The translations under genes and the position numbers were made by a program. A stretch of 64,000 nt of DNA from Lytechinus pictus. Lineage: Eukaryota. Positions 22,625-61,873 of the stretch are shown piece by piece. The stretch's first letter is position 1. Each line of letters opens with the position of its first letter. The stretch is taken from the NCBI RefSeq assembly GCF_037042905.1, contig NC_087245.1, forward strand, positions 13,828,001-13,892,000, read 5' to 3'. The notes beneath the pieces are model-generated. The model saw only the letters and a list, made by a program, of their open reading frames with translations. It searched no databases and was not told where the DNA came from.

Positions 22625-25597
22625 TTGAGTCTCCATGAATTTAGCCAACTCATCAAAGATGCAACCCGTGTCACTCACACATGTTCTTCTTTATTGGACC
22701 ATGTGATTTGTAATAACGAACAAAAAATAAGTCAAAGTGGTGTTTATTGATCTTGGTATAAGTGACCATTCTTTTACTTTCTGTACACGAAAGAAAATTA
22801 GGCTGGCTATAGGTGTTCACAGAACCACTGATATCAGATCGTTGAAAAAATATAGCGAAGAATCTTTCAATCTTAAACTGTCTGCCGTTGATTGGTCAAA
22901 TTTAACCCAATGCACTGACGTAAATAAGGCTTGGTCAGTTTTTCAAAATACTTTTATTTCAACGTTGAATATGATAGCGCCTCAAAAACGGATTAGAATT
23001 AAACAGAGATCAGAAAACTGGATGACTAAAGATATTATTTCTCTTATTCGAGAAAGAAATGTGGCGTATAAAAAAATGAAGAAAAATCTAAGCGATCAGG
23101 ATTATGACACGCTTTCCAAAAGATACAAGAAATTAAGAAATATGGTTCAAAGAGAGGTGAAAAAGGCCAAATTAGAATACCTACAAAATAAAATAGAAGA
23201 AAATAAAAATGATTCTAAAAGACTTTGGCAGAATCTAAAAAGTTTGGGATTAAAAAAGAAAAATGGAAAGGACCAAGAATTAGTCGTTTCAATTGACGGA
23301 GAATTATGTCATGATAAGATAACTATTTCCAATGAATTCAATTCCTATTTTACAAATGTCGCAGCTACGTTGGTAGATAAACTTCCATCTTGCAAAGAAA
23401 TTTTCAGTGCAGACAGTGAAAACATTCGTAAATTTTATGAAAAAAAGGGTATAAGCCAAGATAAATTTGAATTATTACCTGTTAGTGATCAATTCATTTT
23501 TAATGAGTTGCGTAAATTAAATGTATCAAAAAGCACTGGGTTAGATTTGATACCTGCTAAATTTCTAAAAGAAGGAGCAAAGAGTTTGTACAAACCATTA
23601 AATTTCTTAATAAATCTATCTATCTTTACTAGCACTTTCCCAGAGGATATGAAAATTGCAAAAGTAACTCCTATTCATAAGAAGAAAGATAAAACTGCTG
23701 TTGAAAACTATAGACCTATCAGTGTTTTAAGCATAGTATCCAAAATTCTAGAAAAGGCGGTATGTGTTCAGATCGAAAAATATTTTAAAGAAAATGATAT
23801 GATTTACGAATATCAGTCAGGTTTTCGACATGACTATTCGACTGAGACATGCCTTATTCACTTGACTGATTATCTGAGAACAAATATGTCTAAGGGACAA
23901 TTCGTTGGGATGGTACTCCTAGATCTTCAAAAAGCATTTGATACAGTTAATCACGGCATCTTATTGAAAAAATTACAAATAATGGGTTTTAACCAGGCTA
24001 CTGTAGCATGGTTCAAATCCTACTTGTCGAATCGACATCAAGTAGTGGCTATTCGCGATATTTGTTCCAAAATTATGCCTATAACGTGTGGAGTTCCACA
24101 GGGAAGTATTTTAGGCCCAATCCTATTTTCAACTTATATCAATGACATGTCTATTTGTTTAAAAGCTGACTGTAAATTATTATTGTATGCAGATGATAGC
24201 GTACTACTTTGTTCAAATGCCAACCCAAAATTTGTTGAGGAAAAACTTAGCGAACAGCTGTCTACATGTGTCGATTGGATGACTGATAATAGATTATCGT
24301 TACACTTAGGCAAAACCGAAAGCATTCTGTTTTGTTCTAAAAGTAATCATAAAACTTGATTTGAATTTGAAGTATCATACAATAATAAGATAATTCATAG
24401 GAAAGAATCTGTAAAGTATTTAGGCATTGAGTTGACTAGCTCCCTTTCATTTTCATCTTTAGTAGAATCAATCGTAAAAAGGGCGAATGCCCGTTTGAAA
24501 TTTTTGTACAGGTATCAAAGTTGTATGGATCAAAAAGCAAGGCGTATTCTCTGTTTTGCTCTTATTCAGAGTTTATTTGACTATGCCAACCCTGCTTGGT
24601 TTAGTGGCATAAGCGAACTCGATAAACAGAAGTTGAAAATTATACAGAATAAAATGGTTAGATTCATTAGCTGTTCTGGTCCCAGAACCCATGTTGGCTA
24701 CACCGAACTCTCTGGAGCAGGTTTTCTTGAAGTCAACAAAAGATCAAAACAGCTTATTTTGCACCACGTGCATAAAATCTATCACAATAGATCGAATCAT
24801 TACATTGGATCAAACTTTAATCTAGTTACCGAAATACATAACTATAATACAAGAAACAGCCATTTCAATTTTTGCTTACCAGAAAGGGTAGGTAGTATTG
24901 GTAACTCATTTTATTACAATGCTATAAAACATTGGAATTCCCTTCCAAATGATATAAAGGAAATAGGAAACTTTTTGCATTTTAAGAGGAAATTGAAAGA
25001 ATATCTTTCACTTGAGAGTCAAAAAGAAGATGCAAATGATATGTTGTACGGTTGATTTAGCCTGAATACTGACCTAGTTCTTTTCTCTTCTCTACTAGGT
25101 ATTATTATGTATTTTACATAGTTTGATTGAAGCTTCGATATGTCCTTTCTTCTATTCTTTCTATTTCTTTTATTTCTTCCTATTCTCCCCTTCTTGTTGT
25201 TATTGTCGTCACGTTTATGCTGTTGTTCTTCTCCTTATTTATTTCCCTTCGTTATCAGTTTCTTCCGTCTCCTTCTACTCCTCGTCCCCTCTCTTCTTCT
25301 GTTCCTCCTCTTCCTTCTCCTTCTTTTCTTCTTCTTCTTCGTTATATTCTTGTATATATCTTATTTATTGTCTATATATCTTATTTATTGGTAATAGTAA
25401 ATTCTGATTTTTTTCTTCATTTTTAATATGTAAATAGTATAATTTTAACATTTTATTATCTTAATTCTGTATATTGAGGACCCCACTGGAAATAAGCTTT
25501 CGAGCTTTCGTGGGTCATCCTGTGCAAGCCTGTTGTTTTAATGGTACTGTATATATGTTATGGTGACTTGCCAAATAAAATCAATCAATCAATCAAT
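22625..25597 (+). mobile_element. 5'-truncated L2-group (Crack/Daphne-like) LINE, ORF2 pseudogene
   Basis: APE tail (TRVT...SLLDHV...ISDH); RT motifs NYRPISVL, YQSGFR, LDLQKAFDTV, GVPQGSILGP, YADD, KYLG; frameshift near 22740 and in-frame TGA at 24357-24359; 3' stem-loop and AATAAAA(TCAA)n tail. Confidence 0.9.
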
Positions 25598-33146: not shown

Positions 33147-33264
33147 CAGGGGCGTCGATCCATTATTTTTTCAGATGGGGGGGGGGGGCAAAATCATGAA
33201 TCAACGTTCCAAATGCGCTCGATCATACAAACCAAACAACCTCACGCACACACACACACACATA

Positions 33265-33295
<31 letters not shown>

Positions 33296-33955
33296 GACTT
33301 TTGAGATACCGACACGTATCTCACCAACAAATTAATGCGAGTGCGAAGCGCGAGCTGAATTTTTTTTAGTATACTGACCTTAAAACAGGAAAAGGGTACC
33401 TGTTTAGGACAAAAATTTCTTTATATTCTGACCTGAAAGCTTGATATTCTAAGCATTATTGGTACCAATGATTAAGATTGGTATCTAAAAGAACAATAGA
33501 TGCGAGCGCGAAGCGCGAGCTGAAAATGTTGATATTTCGATCTGAAAAAATTTTACAGTTAATGGACGTTTTTGATAAAGAACAAGCTATATATCCAACA
33601 AAAGATTATTGCAAAGCGAAGCGGGAGTTCCTTTTGAGGTTTAGCACTGAAAACGGGACATTCTATTCACATATTTAATCATGAAAAGTATGGGTTTTTG
33701 CTACAGAAATGATGCGAGCGCGAAGCGCGAGCTGAAAATCTTTATATTCCAATCTGAAAAGCGGACATTTTGAGAACGATTGAAATAAAGAACGAGTCGT
33801 GTATCTCAATCTCGCTTGCTGAACATTACAATCTTATTTTATTTTTGCACATCCGGAATTATTGGGGGGGGGGGGCAAAACGATATGTTGGCCCCCCCCC
33901 CAATATTTTCATCGGTGGGGCGATCGCCCCCCCCCCCCCAGGATCGACGCCTCTG
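33147..33955. mobile_element. hAT MITE
   Basis: TIR CAGGGGCGTCGATCC / GGATCGACGCCTCTG; perfect 8-bp TSD CAACGGAA. Confidence 0.92.
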
Positions 33956-37683: not shown

Positions 37684-39307
37684 CAGTGGCGTACCATGCG
37701 TCACGGCATTGGGGGGGGGGGGGCACCAGCAAAAATTTCGAGTCACTAAGTGAGCGCGCTTCGCGCGCTCAGTTGCCAGGTATACTGACCTAATAGAGAC
37801 ATTTACGGACATGCAGTGCCATTAAATGTATCAGTGAGATATGTATCTCACTGATTGAATAATGCGAGCGCAAAGCGCGAGCTGAAAATGTTTGATATTC
37901 AGACCAAAAAAAGGGACATTATAAGCAAATTTTTTGTAGTCATGATACGTACCTGTCTCGCTAAACAAAAATGCGAGCTCGAAGCCATAGGCATCTAATG
38001 CTAGTGCCGTGCTTTGCTGATTTTGTTAGAATTACATCTAAATACATGAAGTCATTGTAATGATTAACATACGCATCTCACTAATCAATTATTGCGAGCG
38101 CGAAGCGCGAGTTGAAAATTTTGGAAATTCAGACCAGCATTTTAAGGCTTGCTTGTAGGAATTAATAAAGACCATACGTATTTCACTAACCAAAATTATT
38201 ATATTCAAATCAGAAAAAAATGCACATTTTAAGGACTGATTTTAGGAATTCATGAAGAGCAGACATCTCACCAATCCACTAATGCAAACGTAAGCACGGA
38301 CAGGAAATGTTTTATATTTAGACCTTAAAATGGAGCAATCACTTTAAGTAGCCATCAAAAAGAAGCATACAGCTGTATGTCATTACATAAAACAATAATA
38401 ACTCGAATTGCGAGGAAATATATTTGGTGTATATTGACTTGAAAACGGGAGGATTTAGTACAACAGGATTAAATATCTCGTTAAACAGGCTATGCGAGCA
38501 CCAGGAACAATGGAGACATAGGCCCTGAGCAAATAATGTTTCATAAAGTTATGAAAAAAATGCTTGTTATGTAATATAACACAACATAATATAATATTAT
38601 ACAGATATTGCCTACCTAGAGTTTGAATATAACATTTCCTCTCCCTGACTGAGTTATATTTTTCCCAAGGGATTATATTTTGCCCGAAGCGCGCAGCGCT
38701 GAGGGAAAATGTTCTCCCGAGGGAAAAATATAACTTCGGAGGGGAGTTGAAATGTTATTTATTAAAACGATAGACCAGGCAATATCTGTTTTATTATATA
38801 GTCTATGTGGATTCGCCATCAGAGATTGCATTCATCATCCGGCTCCAACCCGAAATTCTTGCTACAGCTCTGATCCATCTACGTCATAATAGAAAATATT
38901 TTGAAAATGCATCAAGCGCGTTCTTCATGCAATCGACGCGTTAACACTAGCGCGTACATCAAACTACCTGATTACGCAACTTGTAAGCAGCGAGTGACGT
39001 CACCTTAGTGAATATAACGCTGCAATTGACAATACAACGCAGTTATATTCACTGAGGTGACGTCAAAACCTAGAATATAACAAATGCGATCCTCGCAGCT
39101 ATGGTCACGTGTTGGCGTATTGACCTATCACTGATTCGAATCTACATAACCTATGTAATATAGCATTCTAATGAACAATAATATCCTTTTCCCACTACGT
39201 TTCTCTTCCTTTCTCCCTCTTTTTCTCATTTTCCCTTTTTTTTGGCCAGCCGGATGGGGGGGGGGGGGGGGCACGTGTCCACCATGCCCCCCGTAGTTAC
39301 GCCACTG
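37684..39307. mobile_element. hAT MITE (nested)
   Basis: CAGTGGCGTA ... TACGCCACTG; 8-bp TSD ATTAGTCA. Confidence 0.9.
38596..39163. mobile_element. Double-hairpin repeat element without TIR/TSD, inserted in the hAT MITE
   Basis: IR pairs acagatattgcc/ggcaatatctgt and tatagtctatgtggattcg/cgaatctacataacctatgta; central cccgaagcgcgcagcgctgaggg palindrome. Confidence 0.55.
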
Positions 39308-46954: not shown

Positions 46955-47187
46955 ATGTCTTCTCTAGTGAATATCCTTAAGGGTGCGGTGGAGTACATCG
47001 GGGTTACAAACCTCTTGGCCGCGACCACGTTGTGTCTTGTAACTTACTGGTTTATCCGTACCAACTATTGGACGTTATTCTATCGTCTTCCCCCTGGTCC
47101 GCCGGTCATCCCGCATCCCCTCGATGGTATTCTGGAATTGTTTCCAGTCAAGGATCGTTTCGGGCGTTTGATCCAACTCAGTAAAAG
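46955..47187 (+). CDS. Cytochrome P450, clan 2 (CYP2-like), coding exon 1
   Basis: accATG; N-terminal membrane anchor and LPPGPP hinge; gtaaag donor (phase 2). Confidence 0.9.
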
Positions 47188-48119
47188 GTAAAGTTGAGAC
47201 AATCACAGAATACCTTCAATAATACCTAACAGTTTTCATCAGAATGATAGCGAGTTAAATTTATTCATTGCGAATATGTACATAGAGGAATCAAATATGA
47301 TTTAAAAGTAAAATCGACTCGTGTCATCTGTCAACTTCTTGTATGTCTGTTAACTTGGGGATGAACGATTCTGGTGCCTGTTTCATAAAAAGTACAACTA
47401 CACTGAGTGATCCATGAATAGAAAACATCTAACTAATTCAAAATTGCGAGCGGGAAGCGCGAGCTGATTTTTTTTTAATAATTCAACCTGAACACTCGAT
47501 TGTAGCCATAAAGAGGATGGATGCAAACAATATTGATGCGAAGGCGAAGCGCCAGCTGAAAATTTAGATTTCCGACCAGAAAACTCGACATTTTTTAATT
47601 TTTAATTAACTGATCTGAAAAAAGCACCTGTTAATAACTGTTTGCAGTGACTCATGAATAAGGACGGTTAAGCACTTTTTTAAAATAAAGAACACAGTAA
47701 ACAAGCGAGCTTAGAGGGTGGGCATAGAACTAAATAACTTTTGCGACCGCGAAGCGCGAGCTGTTTTTTGTGTCGCACACCCACCCCCCCCCCCCCCCCC
47801 ATTTAACGACGGCCCTGCTTGTAACATTTCAATTGCTTCATTAATACTTCAGATTTAAGTGTGCATGGTAGTTCCCATAAGGGCAAAGAAATGGTTCCCT
47901 CATCAGTCTCATCACTTCTCGCAGATGGTATCGTTAAACGGCAACATGCATATTAACCTTCAGGGTTTGTTTCTTCTTACGATGAGATAATCAATGTGTC
48001 GAGGAATACATTTTTAAGTTTATTTGGCTATCGTTGTTTGCCTTCAAAAGACATTTATGTTGATGTGCTCTGAATAATTTCATCGCACTCTTCACTAACC
48101 TCTTGTTTATATTTTCCAG

Positions 48120-48271
48120 ATATGGCGAGATATATTGTCTGCGAATCGGCTCAAAAATGTTTACTGTGATTTCAAGTCCTAGTCTTGTCAAAGAACTCAT
48201 CGTAAAACAAGCTGATGTAACATCCAACAGAATCCCGCTTCCATTCTTAGCCCAAACTATGGGTTACACTG
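48120..48271 (+). CDS. CYP2-like exon 2
   Basis: RYGEIYCLRIGSKMFTVISSPSLVKELIVKQADVTSNRI...; phases are compatible. Confidence 0.92.
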
Positions 48272-48706: not shown

Positions 48707-49101
48707 GGGGTATTGCCTTCAGTGAAGGGGAACCCTGGCAGGAACTCCGTCGATTTAGTCTCTCTGCTCTCCGTAACTTCGGCATGGGTCGGAGGGGAAT
48801 CGAGTCGCGGATACAGGAAGAAGCGCACATCCTTTGTGATGCATTTGCTGGAAAGTCCGGAGAGGCATTCGACGCCATGCACCTCACAAATGCAGCTGTT
48901 TCCAACATCATCTGCACTATCACATTCGGGAGGCGGTTAGAGTATGATGATCCTATTTTCATTGATATGATTCGGAGGCTGAGGAACGTTACAAATGTAC
49001 TCGGGATAAATCCCATCATTCGGGGGCTTATGAGAAGATTCCCGGTGATACTAAGGACTCCGTTTCTAAAGGGACCAAGAGATAACATTCTGGGGATTAA
49101 G
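48707..49101 (+). CDS. CYP2-like exon 3
   Basis: GIAFSEGEPWQELRRFSLSALRNFGMG (WxxxR helix C), AVSNIICTITFGRR. Confidence 0.95.
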
Positions 49102-55867: not shown

Positions 55868-55950
55868 GGCCGCCTCTGTGGTCTAATGGTTAAGGCATTG
55901 GCGTTCAGAGCCAGTGACCTGGGTTCGTTTCCCAGCGGAGACATTTTTTC
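55868..55950 (+). mobile_element. tRNA-derived SINE head / tRNA-like fragment
   Basis: TGGTCTAATGG A box, GGTTCGTTTCCC B box; poor anticodon arm. Confidence 0.5.
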
Positions 55951-56095
55951 TACCATTGATTCAAATGGATGACGGTTCTGTTTGATGAATAAACACGACT
56001 TTCCCGTAGATTTGCGATCTGCCGTACAAAAATATTCCCCATTGATACTGGTGTAGCTTCCATTATTTGTTATACATTCATGATTCAAATCACAG

Positions 56096-56423
56096 ATCAT
56101 AACTGAGATCGATCGGGTTGTTGGAAGGGAAAGAGCTCCATGCGTTGATGATCGCAAGGATATGCCGTATACTGACGCAACTATAACAGAGGTCCTTCGG
56201 TTCCGACCTGTTGCACCAATTGGAGTCGGGCATGCCACTGCCAAGGACGTCGAGATCAGAGGTTACACCATTCCTAAGCGTACAATGATTCTGATTAATA
56301 TCGTGGCTCTTCACCTTGATCCGAATCTATGGGAAAACCCGGAAGAGTTCAACCCTGATCGCTTCCTGAGTGAAGACGGAAAGACTGTTATCAAGCATGA
56401 TGCGTTCACTGTATTTGGTGCAG
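56096..56423 (+). CDS. CYP2-like exon 5
   Basis: EIDRVVG, MPYTDATITEVLR (ExxR), FNPDRF, FGAG. Confidence 0.95.
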
Positions 56424-57766
56424 GTAAGGATTAACAAGATCGATTAATACCGTTTTCAGTAACTCATGATTTTTTGGTCGGCACAAGACACGCACTAAAA
56501 TAGTCCGCACCACAAGCGTTCAGTAACTTAGCAGAGCGGCACTACTCTTACGACCACCCATTCAAAAGCTCGGGTACATAATCATGATGGCGCTGGTCTG
56601 GTGATGCTAAGTACAAGCATCAAAATATCACCGCACAGTGGGCCAGAATTGAGCTCGAAGTGCGCCAAAATTATATTCCGCGTTATACTTATACCGAACT
56701 ATATCGCTCAGAGGTAATTTTGGGCGTAGAATCGACTGGGCATATTTTCAAGCCAATTGGACGTCACCTTGATACTAAAATTTTATTGGCTGCTTAAAGC
56801 CTATCTGTGAAGTGGTGAATAACACTAAATTATTTGGACTATATAAAATTTGTGTGTTACTTTAAGATTGACCTGACATAACATTGGATATGCCTCTCGC
56901 ATGTCTAAAAAGTGTGTACGAAATCCTGAAAATAATTATATGACATCAAACGGATCATTGAATGAAAAAAAAAATACTTCAAAATCTATAAACATTAACC
57001 GGATTTTGTAAAATGTGTAGACTGGGGTTGAAACGCAGATAGCTAGTATATCACACCGCGAATGTATCACTCGGGAGTGTTTTACGGCTGAATGGATTCT
57101 ACAAGTCACTTATCTTTGAAAGAGGGGTGGTCGATCAGCCCTTATATTAGCCTCTTGTCGAGGCCCTGGCGGCTGCTTCCCGAGCGAAGCGAGGGATTCC
57201 CTACCTGGCGCGAGCCAGGCCTGTCTCGCGGCGCTCTGCTTCGCTCTCTGCCTTGCTTTGCCATGTTCGCTCGGAAAGCAGCCGACAGGGCCTCGACAAG
57301 AGGCTACCCTTATATGGGCTATCAACCTTACTGTTGTATACACTATGCACGGAACGTCATGTCGTTTTCATGAAATCGGCGGGAATCGACCTCGCCGTGC
57401 AAAAGTGAATGGCTATCGGCTATGAACACCTCGCCCCACACGGTGCGTTTCAATGGCTGCGCGGTATAAAATGACCGTTTTTCGGGTGATGTGTCAAGTA
57501 AAATTGACTCTAACATAAGAAGTTGCAGAAGGTCGCAGCTAAATCTAGTATCAATTTAAAGCTTAGACATCAGAGAAAATTATGGTAATATAATTTTAGA
57601 CAAAAATCCACGAAAATTTAAACTTTTCTAATGTAAATGTAAAAAAAGGTGGATGCATGCGGCCTATTTCGTGGAATAATCGCCCTAGCTGTAAACCACA
57701 TGGGATGTGTATTTTATCTGTTTGTAACCCTTTCACACGAAAAGGAATTATATCAGGACTATGTAG

Positions 57767-60003
57767 CAGGGGCGTCGATCCATTTTTCAAATTGGGGGGG
57801 GGGGGGCAAAATTATGAATCAACGTTCAAAAGGCGCTCAATCACACAAAACAACACACACACACACCCACACACATAGGCCTATATAATTATATGTATAT
57901 ATATATATATTTGTATATATAAATATATATATATAAATATATATATATATACATATATTTATATAAATATATATATATGACTCATATACATATTCTCATG
58001 GTTGATATTATTCCTGAGAAAATGTTAAAAAGACTGAATTCTTTAATATATACTTTTATTTGGCAAACTAAGATAGAAAAAGTGAAAAGAACTATAATGA
58101 CCAACAAACTGGACAATGGAGGGGTCAACATGATTGATCTATATACCCAAAAATTGAGCTTTCGACTAAGATGGCTGGGGCGCACTCTTGCGTCTAGTAA
58201 AGGAATGTGGTGTAAATTCAGCCTTTATTGGTTTAATATTTTAGGTGGTTTGAAACTACTCCTTAATTCAGACTTTGATGCTTGGAATATTAAACATATA
58301 TGCAAGCACCATCTTCCAGTCTTTTACATTGAAATATTACAGGCCTGGTTAAAGATAAAGAATAATGCTTGTTTAAAATATCACCCTAAAGTACATGGTA
58401 TACAATACGAAATTTTGTGGCACAATAAAAATGTAACCTTTCGCAACATCACCCTATTTTTTTAAGGATGGTATAAATCTGGGATAGTATTTTTGAAAGA
58501 TATTCTCAGGAATGGAAGTTTCTTACCTACAATGGAAATCTATTCCCTTCTTAAATCGCAGAAGAGTAAGCAAAGATTTATATTTGACTATACTTTATTA
58601 CGTCAGGCTATCCCTAAAATTTGGATAAATGACATTACAACACATTGTACCAACCGCAATAATAAACCTTCTTTAGAGTTTCCCAAAATAGATGTAGGAA
58701 CAAAAAATCAAATTAAAAATATTCATGATATTTCAAGTAAACAATTCTATAGACTATTATCCTTAGATTCATCGAGCATTAACAGATGCTATCTGTATTG
58801 GGAACAGATAATAGGGTCATCATTAGATTGGACAAAAACTTTTAAAAGAAATTTGTGTCACTGTAAAGAAAATAAACTGAAAGAATTCAATTTTAAGGTC
58901 ATATATAATTTATTGCCAGTAAGAAAGAATTTGTTTAAATGGAATGCTGTAACAGATGGGAGATGCCCGCATTGTTACGTGGACGAAGATGTTGTACATG
59001 CTTTCGTTGAGTGTAAGCTAAATAAGAGATTCCTTTCTTATTTGACAACAGTAGCTAAGATTGAATACAATGTCGACCTTCAAATAACAGAATTTCATTT
59101 ACTTAAGGCTCACAAAGAAACCGAACTCGATTCATTTCTTACAATTGCTTTTTGGTGCATTTATAAATGTATACTTATAAGAAACAAAACAGGAAAAGAT
59201 TGTCGAGAACTTAATTTGGAATATTTGTTTGAAAAAGAAATATGTAAACATGTGATGTGATTTTGAATGTTCAATTGTGCATATAATAAATGCCCATGGT
59301 GGGTTTAATAAAAAAAAAAAAATATATATATATATATGACTCATAAGAAAGAGGCACATATCTCACCAACAAATTAATACGAGCGCGAAGCGCGAGCTGA
59401 AATTTTTTACTATACCAACCTGAAAACCGGAAAAAGGTACCTGTTTAGGAGTGTTTGTAGTAACTCATGAGGAGGATACATATGTCACTACACGGATAAT
59501 GTGAGTGCCGAATAAATTTCATTATATTCTGACCTGAAACTTGATATTCTAAGCATTTTTGGTACCAATAATTAAGATGGGTATCTAAAACAACAAAAGA
59601 TGCGAGTGCGAAGTGCGAGCTGAAAATTTTGATATTTCGATCTGAAAGAATTGACAGAGCAATGGACGTTTTTAATAAAGAACAATCATCTAACAAAAGA
59701 TTATTGCACATCGAAGCGGGTGTTCTTTTGAGGTTTAGAACAGAAAACATTCTATTCACCTATTTAATCATGAAAAGTATAGGTTTTTGCTACAGAAATG
59801 ATGCGAGCGCGAAGCGCGAGCTGAAAATTTTTATATTCCAATCTGTAAAGCGGACATTTTGAGCACGATTTTAAATAAAGAACGAGTTGTGTATCTCAAT
59901 CTCGCTTGCTGATTTCTGTGTAAGATTACAATCTTATTTTATTTTTGCACTTGCGGAATTATTGGGGGGGGGGGGGCAAAACGATATGTTTGCCCCCCAA
60001 TGT
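57767..60003. mobile_element. hAT MITE (same family as 33147-33955), right TIR deleted, interrupted by a LINE
   Basis: CAGGGGCGTCGATCC start; 59345-60003 aligns with 33300-33903. Confidence 0.85.
57987..59322 (+). mobile_element. 5'-truncated L1/Tx1-clade LINE (ORF2 C-terminal part)
   Basis: FIWQTKIEKVKR...GGVNMID...LRWL; C-terminal CPHC-x7-H-x4-C knuckle; frameshift near 58460; AATAAA and polyA; TSD (TA)nTGACTCATA on both sides. Confidence 0.9.
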
Positions 60004-60481
60004 TTTCAAAATGACTTTTTGCGCACTTTGGTTTCGTCCCGGCCCTCTGTGCACCGGTCTGGCGCGGGCTATTTAAGCACGCGGCATTCATAAACTCACA
60101 ATTATTTTTCGACTTAATTAGCCCGGACTAGCGAGTTACTGAAAGCGGTATTACTTTGTTGACAGAAAACAAATCTATTTCTAATTGAAGGAAATGTATT
60201 CGGTATTAAGGGTAATACTCATCTCATTTAAGTATTTCACACAGTGTTATTGTGTCGCGACCTCGGGGTTGCTAATCATCGTCATATAATCCAAATCCCA
60301 AAGTATAATAAATCAACCGAGAAGTTTAAGCATTTGTTTAACTATCGGCTATCATGGTAGGTTGTGTGACAGAGTTAATGACATTTTACAACTGGCCAGG
60401 GGACTGTAAGTGTACAATACTGACAATAAAAATATGAAAATTTGTTTTTGTCTCTCAAGAAATTATTTTATGTCGTTATAG

Positions 60482-60660
60482 GTCGACGTGTGTGTCTTGG
60501 TGAGCAACTCGCACGGATGGAGCTTTTCCTCTTTGCAACAACTCTCATGCAGCGATTTCGCTTTCATCTTCCGGAAGGAGATGGTGGCGACTTCGGCTTC
60601 GGACACTGCTATGGTACTCTTGTGCCAAAGACGTTCAAAGTCTTTGCACATGAGCGATAG
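60482..60660 (+). CDS. CYP2-like exon 6 (terminal)
   Basis: [16 protein letters not shown] completes the heme motif FGAGRRVCLG; TAG stop; the six exons total 1545 nt, or 514 aa in an open frame. Confidence 0.95.
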
Positions 60661-60822: not shown

Positions 60823-61873
60823 CAGGGGCAGCGATCCTGGGGGCCGGGGGACACAGTGCCCCCCACCGACTTTTTGAAGCACTGAAAAAGTGCCCTTTAT
60901 TACGCAATAAAAATGCCCCTCTCACGATCGTGTACTGCGCCCCTTTCTTTGGAAAAGGACCCATTTTAGGTGTTTCCAAGTGCCCTTTCTCGTGAGTGCC
61001 TTTTTTTCAACAAAAATGCCCCCCACGACGTGTTCTGTGCCCTTTCATCTAAGAAGTACCCGTTTTATGTGTGAGCAAGTGCCATATCTCGTATCAGTGC
61101 CAGATTTTTCCCAAAAATTCCCCCTCACTAACGTGTTCTGTGCCCCTTTCATCTTTAAAGGACCCGTTTTATGCCGTTAGCAAGTGCTCTTTTGCCTCTT
61201 ATATAGGTGCCCTTTCTCGTATCAATGCTCCGTTTTACCCCAAAAAGTGCCCCTCATGAACTTCGTGTTCTTTGCCCCTTTTACTTGAGAAAGACCCGTT
61301 TTATGTCTGAGCAAGTGCTCCCTTGCCTAATTCTTGTAAGTCCCTTTCTCTAATCAGCGCCCCTTTTTACCCAAGAAAAGTACCCCTCACGATTATGTCC
61401 TGTGCCCCTTTCACCCGATATGCCGTTAGCAAGTGCCCCTTTGCCTTCTTGTAGGTTCCCTTTCTCATATCAGTGCCCCTTTTTACCAAAGAAAAGTGCC
61501 CCACGAACGTGTTCTGTGCCCCTTTTTCCAGAGAAGGATCCTATTTATGCCATTAACAAGTGCCCCTTTGCCTTCTTATAGGTTCTTTATATCAGATAAG
61601 TTTTCCTGAAAACCACTTTTTTCATGCCCGACGAGCGCCCGGTTTCTTTATTTAGCGCCGTTCTGCTTCCTTCTGCAAGTGAAAAATAAATAAAAAATTA
61701 TAAAAATAATCATACGTGCCTTAGGTTTTCCAAAAAAGTTTACGCATGCTGCCTCCCAGTGAAAAAAAAATCTGCGTCCGGCCATGTTTAAGATAGTGCC
61801 CATTTCGAAAAAAATGGTGCACTTTTTTACTGTGCCCCCCACCCCCACTTTCAAATTCTCTCCGCCGCCCCTG
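60823..61873. mobile_element. hAT MITE with internal ~125-bp minisatellite, just downstream of the CYP stop
   Basis: CAGGGGC ... GCCCCTG; 8-bp TSD ATTTTAGC; repeated aagtgcccctt units. Confidence 0.9.

Follow-up and report, generated by a model that had tools for sequence, protein, structure and literature searches.

The last intron of a cytochrome P450 (CYP) gene in the window, i.e. the whole 64-kb stretch of Lytechinus pictus DNA analysed here, contains an insertion bounded by RSS-like ends. Such ends raise the question of which kind of transposon they belong to, and whether they delimit one element at all. An initial annotation had proposed a non-autonomous element of the Transib lineage, with a RAG-like alternative. 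We examine below the insertion site, the interior, the ends, the related copies and the known elements that resemble it.

The host gene and its last intron

The host is a six-exon CYP gene with GT/AG introns, open over 514 amino acids, and this gene model confirms the location in intron 5 that had been proposed. Pfam p450 matches were obtained on the three CYP exons tested, and the motif FGAGRRVCLG spans the exon 5/6 junction. Intron 5 extends from 56424 to 60481, the element lying 210 bp from its donor and 430 bp from its acceptor. The features of the locus are collected in Table 1.

Contigs of four sequencing runs (X1, X2, X5 and X12) were aligned over 55900-57790; a joint across the whole element would lie outside that reach. 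Runs X1, X2 and X5 represent one organism, hereafter organism A, which differs by ~4% from the window in exon 5. A 1320-nt contig of X12 matches exon 5 alone with 0 differences, as expected of a spliced transcript.

Two other repeats were observed near the element. Just upstream of it, intron 5 carries a short high-depth repeat (56447-56528). Each of the four runs has loose contig ends at 56528, and contigs of organism A skip about 76-111 bp there. Downstream of the CYP stop codon, a degenerate tandem repeat of ~100-132 bp (60905-61600) probably lies inside another MITE starting near 60828.

Table 1. Coordinates of the CYP gene, the Transib-like element and the insertions nested in it (window positions).
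Feature	Position	Strand	Remarks
CYP exons 1-4	46955-47187, 48120-48271, 48707-49101, 55000-55257		gene model
CYP exon 5	56096..56423	+	Pfam p450, E 1e-42
Left target-site duplication CACCG	56629..56633	+	fits C-N-N-C-G
Left terminal inverted repeat, 37 nt	56634..56670	+	13-nt outer, 11-nt middle and 13-nt inner block ending AAAA
Transib interior, first part, non-coding	56671..57147	.	repeated in run contigs to about 56987
Nested hairpin MITE, 159 bp	57148..57306	.	41-nt arms, 95% complementary
Transib interior, second part, non-coding	57316..57766	.	contig joints to first part
Nested hAT-like MITE	57767..60008	+	without the last ~44 nt of the full copy at 33147-33955
5'-truncated LINE tail with poly(A)	57987..59321	+	within the hAT-like MITE, in its TA tract
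Transib right end, 43 nt	60009..60051	-	36-nt terminal inverted repeat at 60016-60051
Right target-site duplication CACCG	60052..60056	+	read from sequence
CYP exon 6	60482..60660	+	heme-binding cysteine and stop codon

Boundaries and target-site duplication

The element covers 56634-60051 (3418 bp), starts with CAC at both ends and is flanked on both sides by an exact CACCG repeat. The 5-bp duplication put forward in the initial annotation thus holds, and it is the only length that fits: repeats of 3, 4 and 6 bp do not. This length bears directly on a possible Chapaev/CMC element with CAC...GTG termini. Chapaev elements do have invariant 5'-CAC termini (PMC4079192), but the duplications described in the same source are of 3-4 bp, TWA in the case of Chapaev3, and the element has a 5-bp GC-rich one only. 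We therefore reject a Chapaev/CMC origin as extremely unlikely.

CAC ends associated with a 5-bp repeat are, taken alone, common by chance: 121 pairs made of CAC...GTG and a perfect 5-bp repeat, at most 10 kb apart, were counted in the window and 77-123 in each of 20 shuffles. For the similarity between the two ends, the element pair is the best of the window with 27/36 identical positions; the next real pair reaches 22, and the best pair per shuffle 19-23 (20 shuffles). A two-end pattern matched the two element ends alone in the window, a result that is circular by construction since the pattern was built from both of them, and gave 0 matches in 100 shuffles. No further end or interior copy was found in the 64-kb window, even with 3+3 mismatches allowed for the ends.

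The interior and its nested insertions

About 70% of the 3418 bp (2.4 kb) corresponds to three later nested insertions, a point overlooked in the initial annotation, and the Transib-derived part amounts to ~1008 bp. Its two interior parts are linked in other copies by contig joints of X1 (56939>57434 and 56825>57496). No transposase frame was found in the element: the longest stop-free frame outside the LINE has 104 codons, and that of 56634-57766 has 101. The non-autonomous status initially assigned to the element is therefore supported.

The hairpin MITE is flanked by a 9-bp duplication, CCCTTATAT, at 57139-57147 and 57307-57315. Its border appears in the four runs as loose ends at 57148, with 12-54 contigs involved in each run, and contigs of X5 and X2 skip the region (57144-57364). 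The target of this MITE was near-palindromic before insertion, over ~18 bp around the 9-bp duplication (57129-57327).

The second MITE is truncated and adjoins the last 43 nt of Transib. The label hAT-like is inferred from the 8-bp length of the duplication of its full copy. That complete copy (33147-33955) has an exact 8-bp duplication, CAACGGAA, and related internal repeats occur near 37844-38244 and 47445-47763.

The LINE tail has a 24-nt duplication (57963-57986 and 59322-59345, 23/24 alike) and consists of two frames parted by a stop; its Pfam zf-RVT match (E 5e-06) is borderline, at the cut-off. Elsewhere in the window, a LINE reverse transcriptase (Pfam RVT_1, E 8e-37) is encoded at 22731-25055, where one stop divides it into two successive frames. 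From the nesting, the order of insertion is Transib, then the MITEs, then the LINE.

The terminal inverted repeats

On re-reading the sequence the two ends are as initially described: CACAGTG + 23 nt + GCCAAAATT on the left (56634-56672) and, in reverse complement, CACAGAG + 22 nt + GCAAAAAGT on the right. They also have a second block in common, AAGTGCGC.AAAA, which had escaped the initial annotation. The middle 10-11 nt differ between the ends, the left middle block (11 nt) being one base above the family norm. Positions 8-10 are GGC in both ends, and A34 and A35 (nonamer positions 5-6) are present in both. The right end carries A for T at position 6 and A for C at position 32.

Transib ends are described as a heptamer, a variable spacer of about 23 bp and an A-rich nonamer-like box, most of them RSS23-like (PMC1131882). 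The element has the CAC terminus and a heptamer close to CACAATG/CACAGTG, a bipartite end of ~38 bp with a spacer of 22-23 on both sides, and a 5-bp GC-rich target-site duplication. All the features tested for membership in Transib are thus present, and we assign the element to this class, bearing in mind that a 2026 preprint gives transposase homology precedence over end features and the length of the duplication, both of which vary within Transib.

Related copies and the length of the spacer

The left part of the element is repeated in 4/4 runs, as expected of a dispersed repeat. At 56604-56795 the summed contig depth is 1283-2879 vs about 60 on exon 5 (X5), a depth that is not a copy number. 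The longest repeat pieces differ by 10-14% from the window copy. At 56988-57115 the depth in organism A is 5-30 vs about 60, a drop on which no conclusion is based here.

A clean empty site was not found in organism A, where in all three runs the flank continues to 56626 and is followed by a hAT-like terminus. The contig making this joint, at or near single-copy depth, matches 57767/57770 over 20-23 letters only. The joint reflects either a separate insertion, seven bases ahead of the Transib end, or a deletion that reached as far as the nested MITE. The hAT-like terminus seen at 56626/56627 in organism A belongs to the same family as the MITE nested at 57767.

Metagenomes were scanned with an end pattern that allowed end lengths of 34-38 and fixed GGC at 8-10 and the A-rich block. 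The scan yielded 11 loci (L001-L011), each with one end and a different flank, falling into about four groups by their inward sequence. None of them supplied a second copy with both ends. The same pattern gave 0 matches in viral contigs and 0 in prokaryote genomes. GGC at 8-10 and the A-rich block, present in 11/11 loci, were fixed by the pattern and are not independent observations; positions 6 and 32 were free in it and are T and C in 11/11. The left end agrees with that of L003 at 34/36 positions with one gap.

The five bases outside these 11 ends have 80% GC vs 35% in the loci and follow a CGNYG profile, with C at -5 in 10/11, G at -4 in 10/11 and G at -1 in 9/11. The window interior is shared by none of the loci beyond a 57-nt stretch in L011 (75%). 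Judging from this sequence comparison, the loci are therefore sibling families, from other organisms or families. In L001 and L005, which have the most inward sequence, there is no convincing transposase frame as judged by frame length only (longest 144 and 90 codons respectively). Five loci (L003, L004, L006, L007 and L008) have an internal tandem repeat of ~143 bp, beginning some 85 nt inside the end. A is found at position 42 from the end in 11/11 loci, a position not fixed by the pattern, and is absent from the window ends.

These data set the length of the spacer. Contigs over the left end are mostly one base short at 56649-56656 in the four runs: among the matches listed, the shorter end accounts for ~1599 of 1741 in X5, 3037 of ~3750 in X1, 1644 of 1939 in X2 and 399.7 of 399.7 in X12. 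The longer form is kept by a minority, e.g. 148 in X2 among those same matches. The related ends are 36 nt long in 11/11 loci, and in their alignment the extra base is seen in the window left end only. Thus the spacer norm is 22, the 23 of the window copy is a minority variant, and a 23-bp spacer as a family trait is rejected. The initial emphasis on a perfect heptamer and a spacing of 23 loses its support, as the 23rd base is such a variant and the heptamer is part of the published Transib architecture.

Comparison with sea urchin Transib elements

Transib-N1_SP is a non-autonomous element of Strongylocentrotus purpuratus whose 36-nt end is printed with 11 copies (Kapitonov and Jurka 2005, Fig. 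S4g, PMC1131882). The exact CACAGTG end was already printed there; the left-side target 5-mers of these copies fit C-N-N-C-G in 11/11, and the duplication is perfect in 8/11. Like the element, Transib-N1_SP is non-coding, has RSS23-like ends on both sides, a CNNCG target and a bipartite end of 36 nt that opens with CACAGTGGGCC and closes with GCGCCAAAA. By eye, the left end agrees with that of Transib-N1_SP at each of its first 13 and last 13 bases and has 11 vs 10 bases between them; the right end matches the Transib-N1_SP end at 30/36 positions. The sizes are also close: 1008 Transib-derived bp here vs 866-992 bp in 10/11 printed copies.

Differences nevertheless appear. The printed copies are symmetric and near their consensus, whereas the window ends differ from the consensus and from each other: the right end is off at 6/36 positions, and the left middle is different and one base longer. 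The three nested insertions are also peculiar to the window element. Compared by ends, target and size, the element would belong either to the same family or to a sibling family. The end motifs of the element gave 0 matches in one supplementary file of PMC9435367.

The mixed resemblance of the ends suggests another explanation, in which each of them would derive from its own Transib-family insertion or fragment and the CACCG match would be due to luck and a shared target preference. The left middle is indeed of the L003 type, the right end is closer to Transib-N1_SP, and the two agree with each other at fewer positions; moreover the run contigs stop well before the right end, of which only 43 nt are left. 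This seems very unlikely because the ends face each other, are the sole such ends in 64 kb even with the mismatches allowed above, and are flanked by the same exact duplication, down to the A at position 2, which is off the consensus. The assignment of both ends to one element rests on this orientation, on the shared blocks and on the exact duplication, the right end surviving over 43 nt only.

A single element is thus retained and, from its sequence features, it is very probably a non-autonomous Transib, now decayed, of the same kind as Transib-N1_SP. The copy is likely old and long dead: it has diverged from its kin, its end positions 6 and 32 have changed and it has been invaded three times.

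RAG-like transposons

A further explanation considered is that a RAG1L-RAG2L (RAGL) transposon gave rise to the element as a miniature derivative, mobilised by a RAG-like heterotetramer. RAGL transposons such as ProtoRAG/BbeRAGL-B, PflRAGL-A and TransibSU-1_PM share with the element the CAC terminus, an RSS-like heptamer and 5-bp GC-rich duplications (PMC7204232, PMC10629977). As described in these two sources, however, their heptamer is directly followed by the A-rich TR2, with AAA at positions 8-10 where the window ends have GGC. They also have ends that are asymmetric in length by 10-11 bp (10 bp in PflRAGL-A), whereas those of the element are of near-equal length. The end of the element further matches one filed under Transib, and stop-free frames outside the LINE reach 104 codons at most; by this frame length (101 and 104 codons) there are no RAG1L/RAG2L genes or remnants between the ends. 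We thus reject a RAGL identity, TR2 and the asymmetry being absent and the end being of the Transib type; such a derivation is very unlikely.

The likeness to the vertebrate 12/23 RSS lies in the CAC terminus and the heptamer-like end. Spacers of 23 (left) and 22 (right) are both RSS23-like, so that the 12/23 pair is absent, and the nonamer-like box agrees with ACAAAAACC at 5/9 positions on the left and 6/9 on the right. With GGC instead of AAA and no 12/23 pair, the RAG-like alternative of the initial annotation finds no support. According to PMC10629977, no intact RAGL transposon is known in echinoderms. A reading that places the ends in a RAG1L(-RAG2L) transposon, or that has RAG1L/RAG2L proteins of the host itself recognise them, appears if anything slightly less credible still. 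If true, the locus would hold an invertebrate 23-RSS with a perfect heptamer, excisable from a host intron by a RAG-like enzyme.

Proposed origin and meaning

A Transib origin is favoured by the identity of the ends, the fitting target, the ~1-kb remainder, the repeated left part and the existence of an autonomous Transib in sea urchin. The latter, Transib1_SP, is 4132 bp long, has a CGGCG duplication and encodes a 676-aa transposase (PMC1131882). It resembles the element by its CNNCG-type duplication and differs by its coding capacity; by analogy, it is a candidate for the kind of mobiliser that may have acted on the element.

Transib transposition is reported to involve nick-hairpin cleavage and to produce 5-bp duplications (PMC4840297, PMC10629977). 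From what is known of the family, a transposase made elsewhere in the genome and supplied in trans would have inserted the copy long ago. This enzyme would bind both bipartite ends, cleave at CAC through a nick and a hairpin, and insert the element into a CNNCG target, the cuts there being staggered by 5 bases. Decay would then account for the extra base of the left end, the two changes at conserved positions of the right end and the 10-14% divergence. Three other mobile elements have since entered the Transib copy, and a deletion would have taken the right end of the hAT-like MITE. The whole element would be spliced out with intron 5, leaving the CYP protein unaffected.

The element is therefore an ordinary one, a further decayed copy of a type known since 2005. 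RSS-like ends are a published hallmark of Transib, and the resemblance to RSS adds little. Intron 5 offers a tidy case of four-layer nesting, and these ends would gain importance only if an autonomous partner encodes RAG1L-RAG2L.
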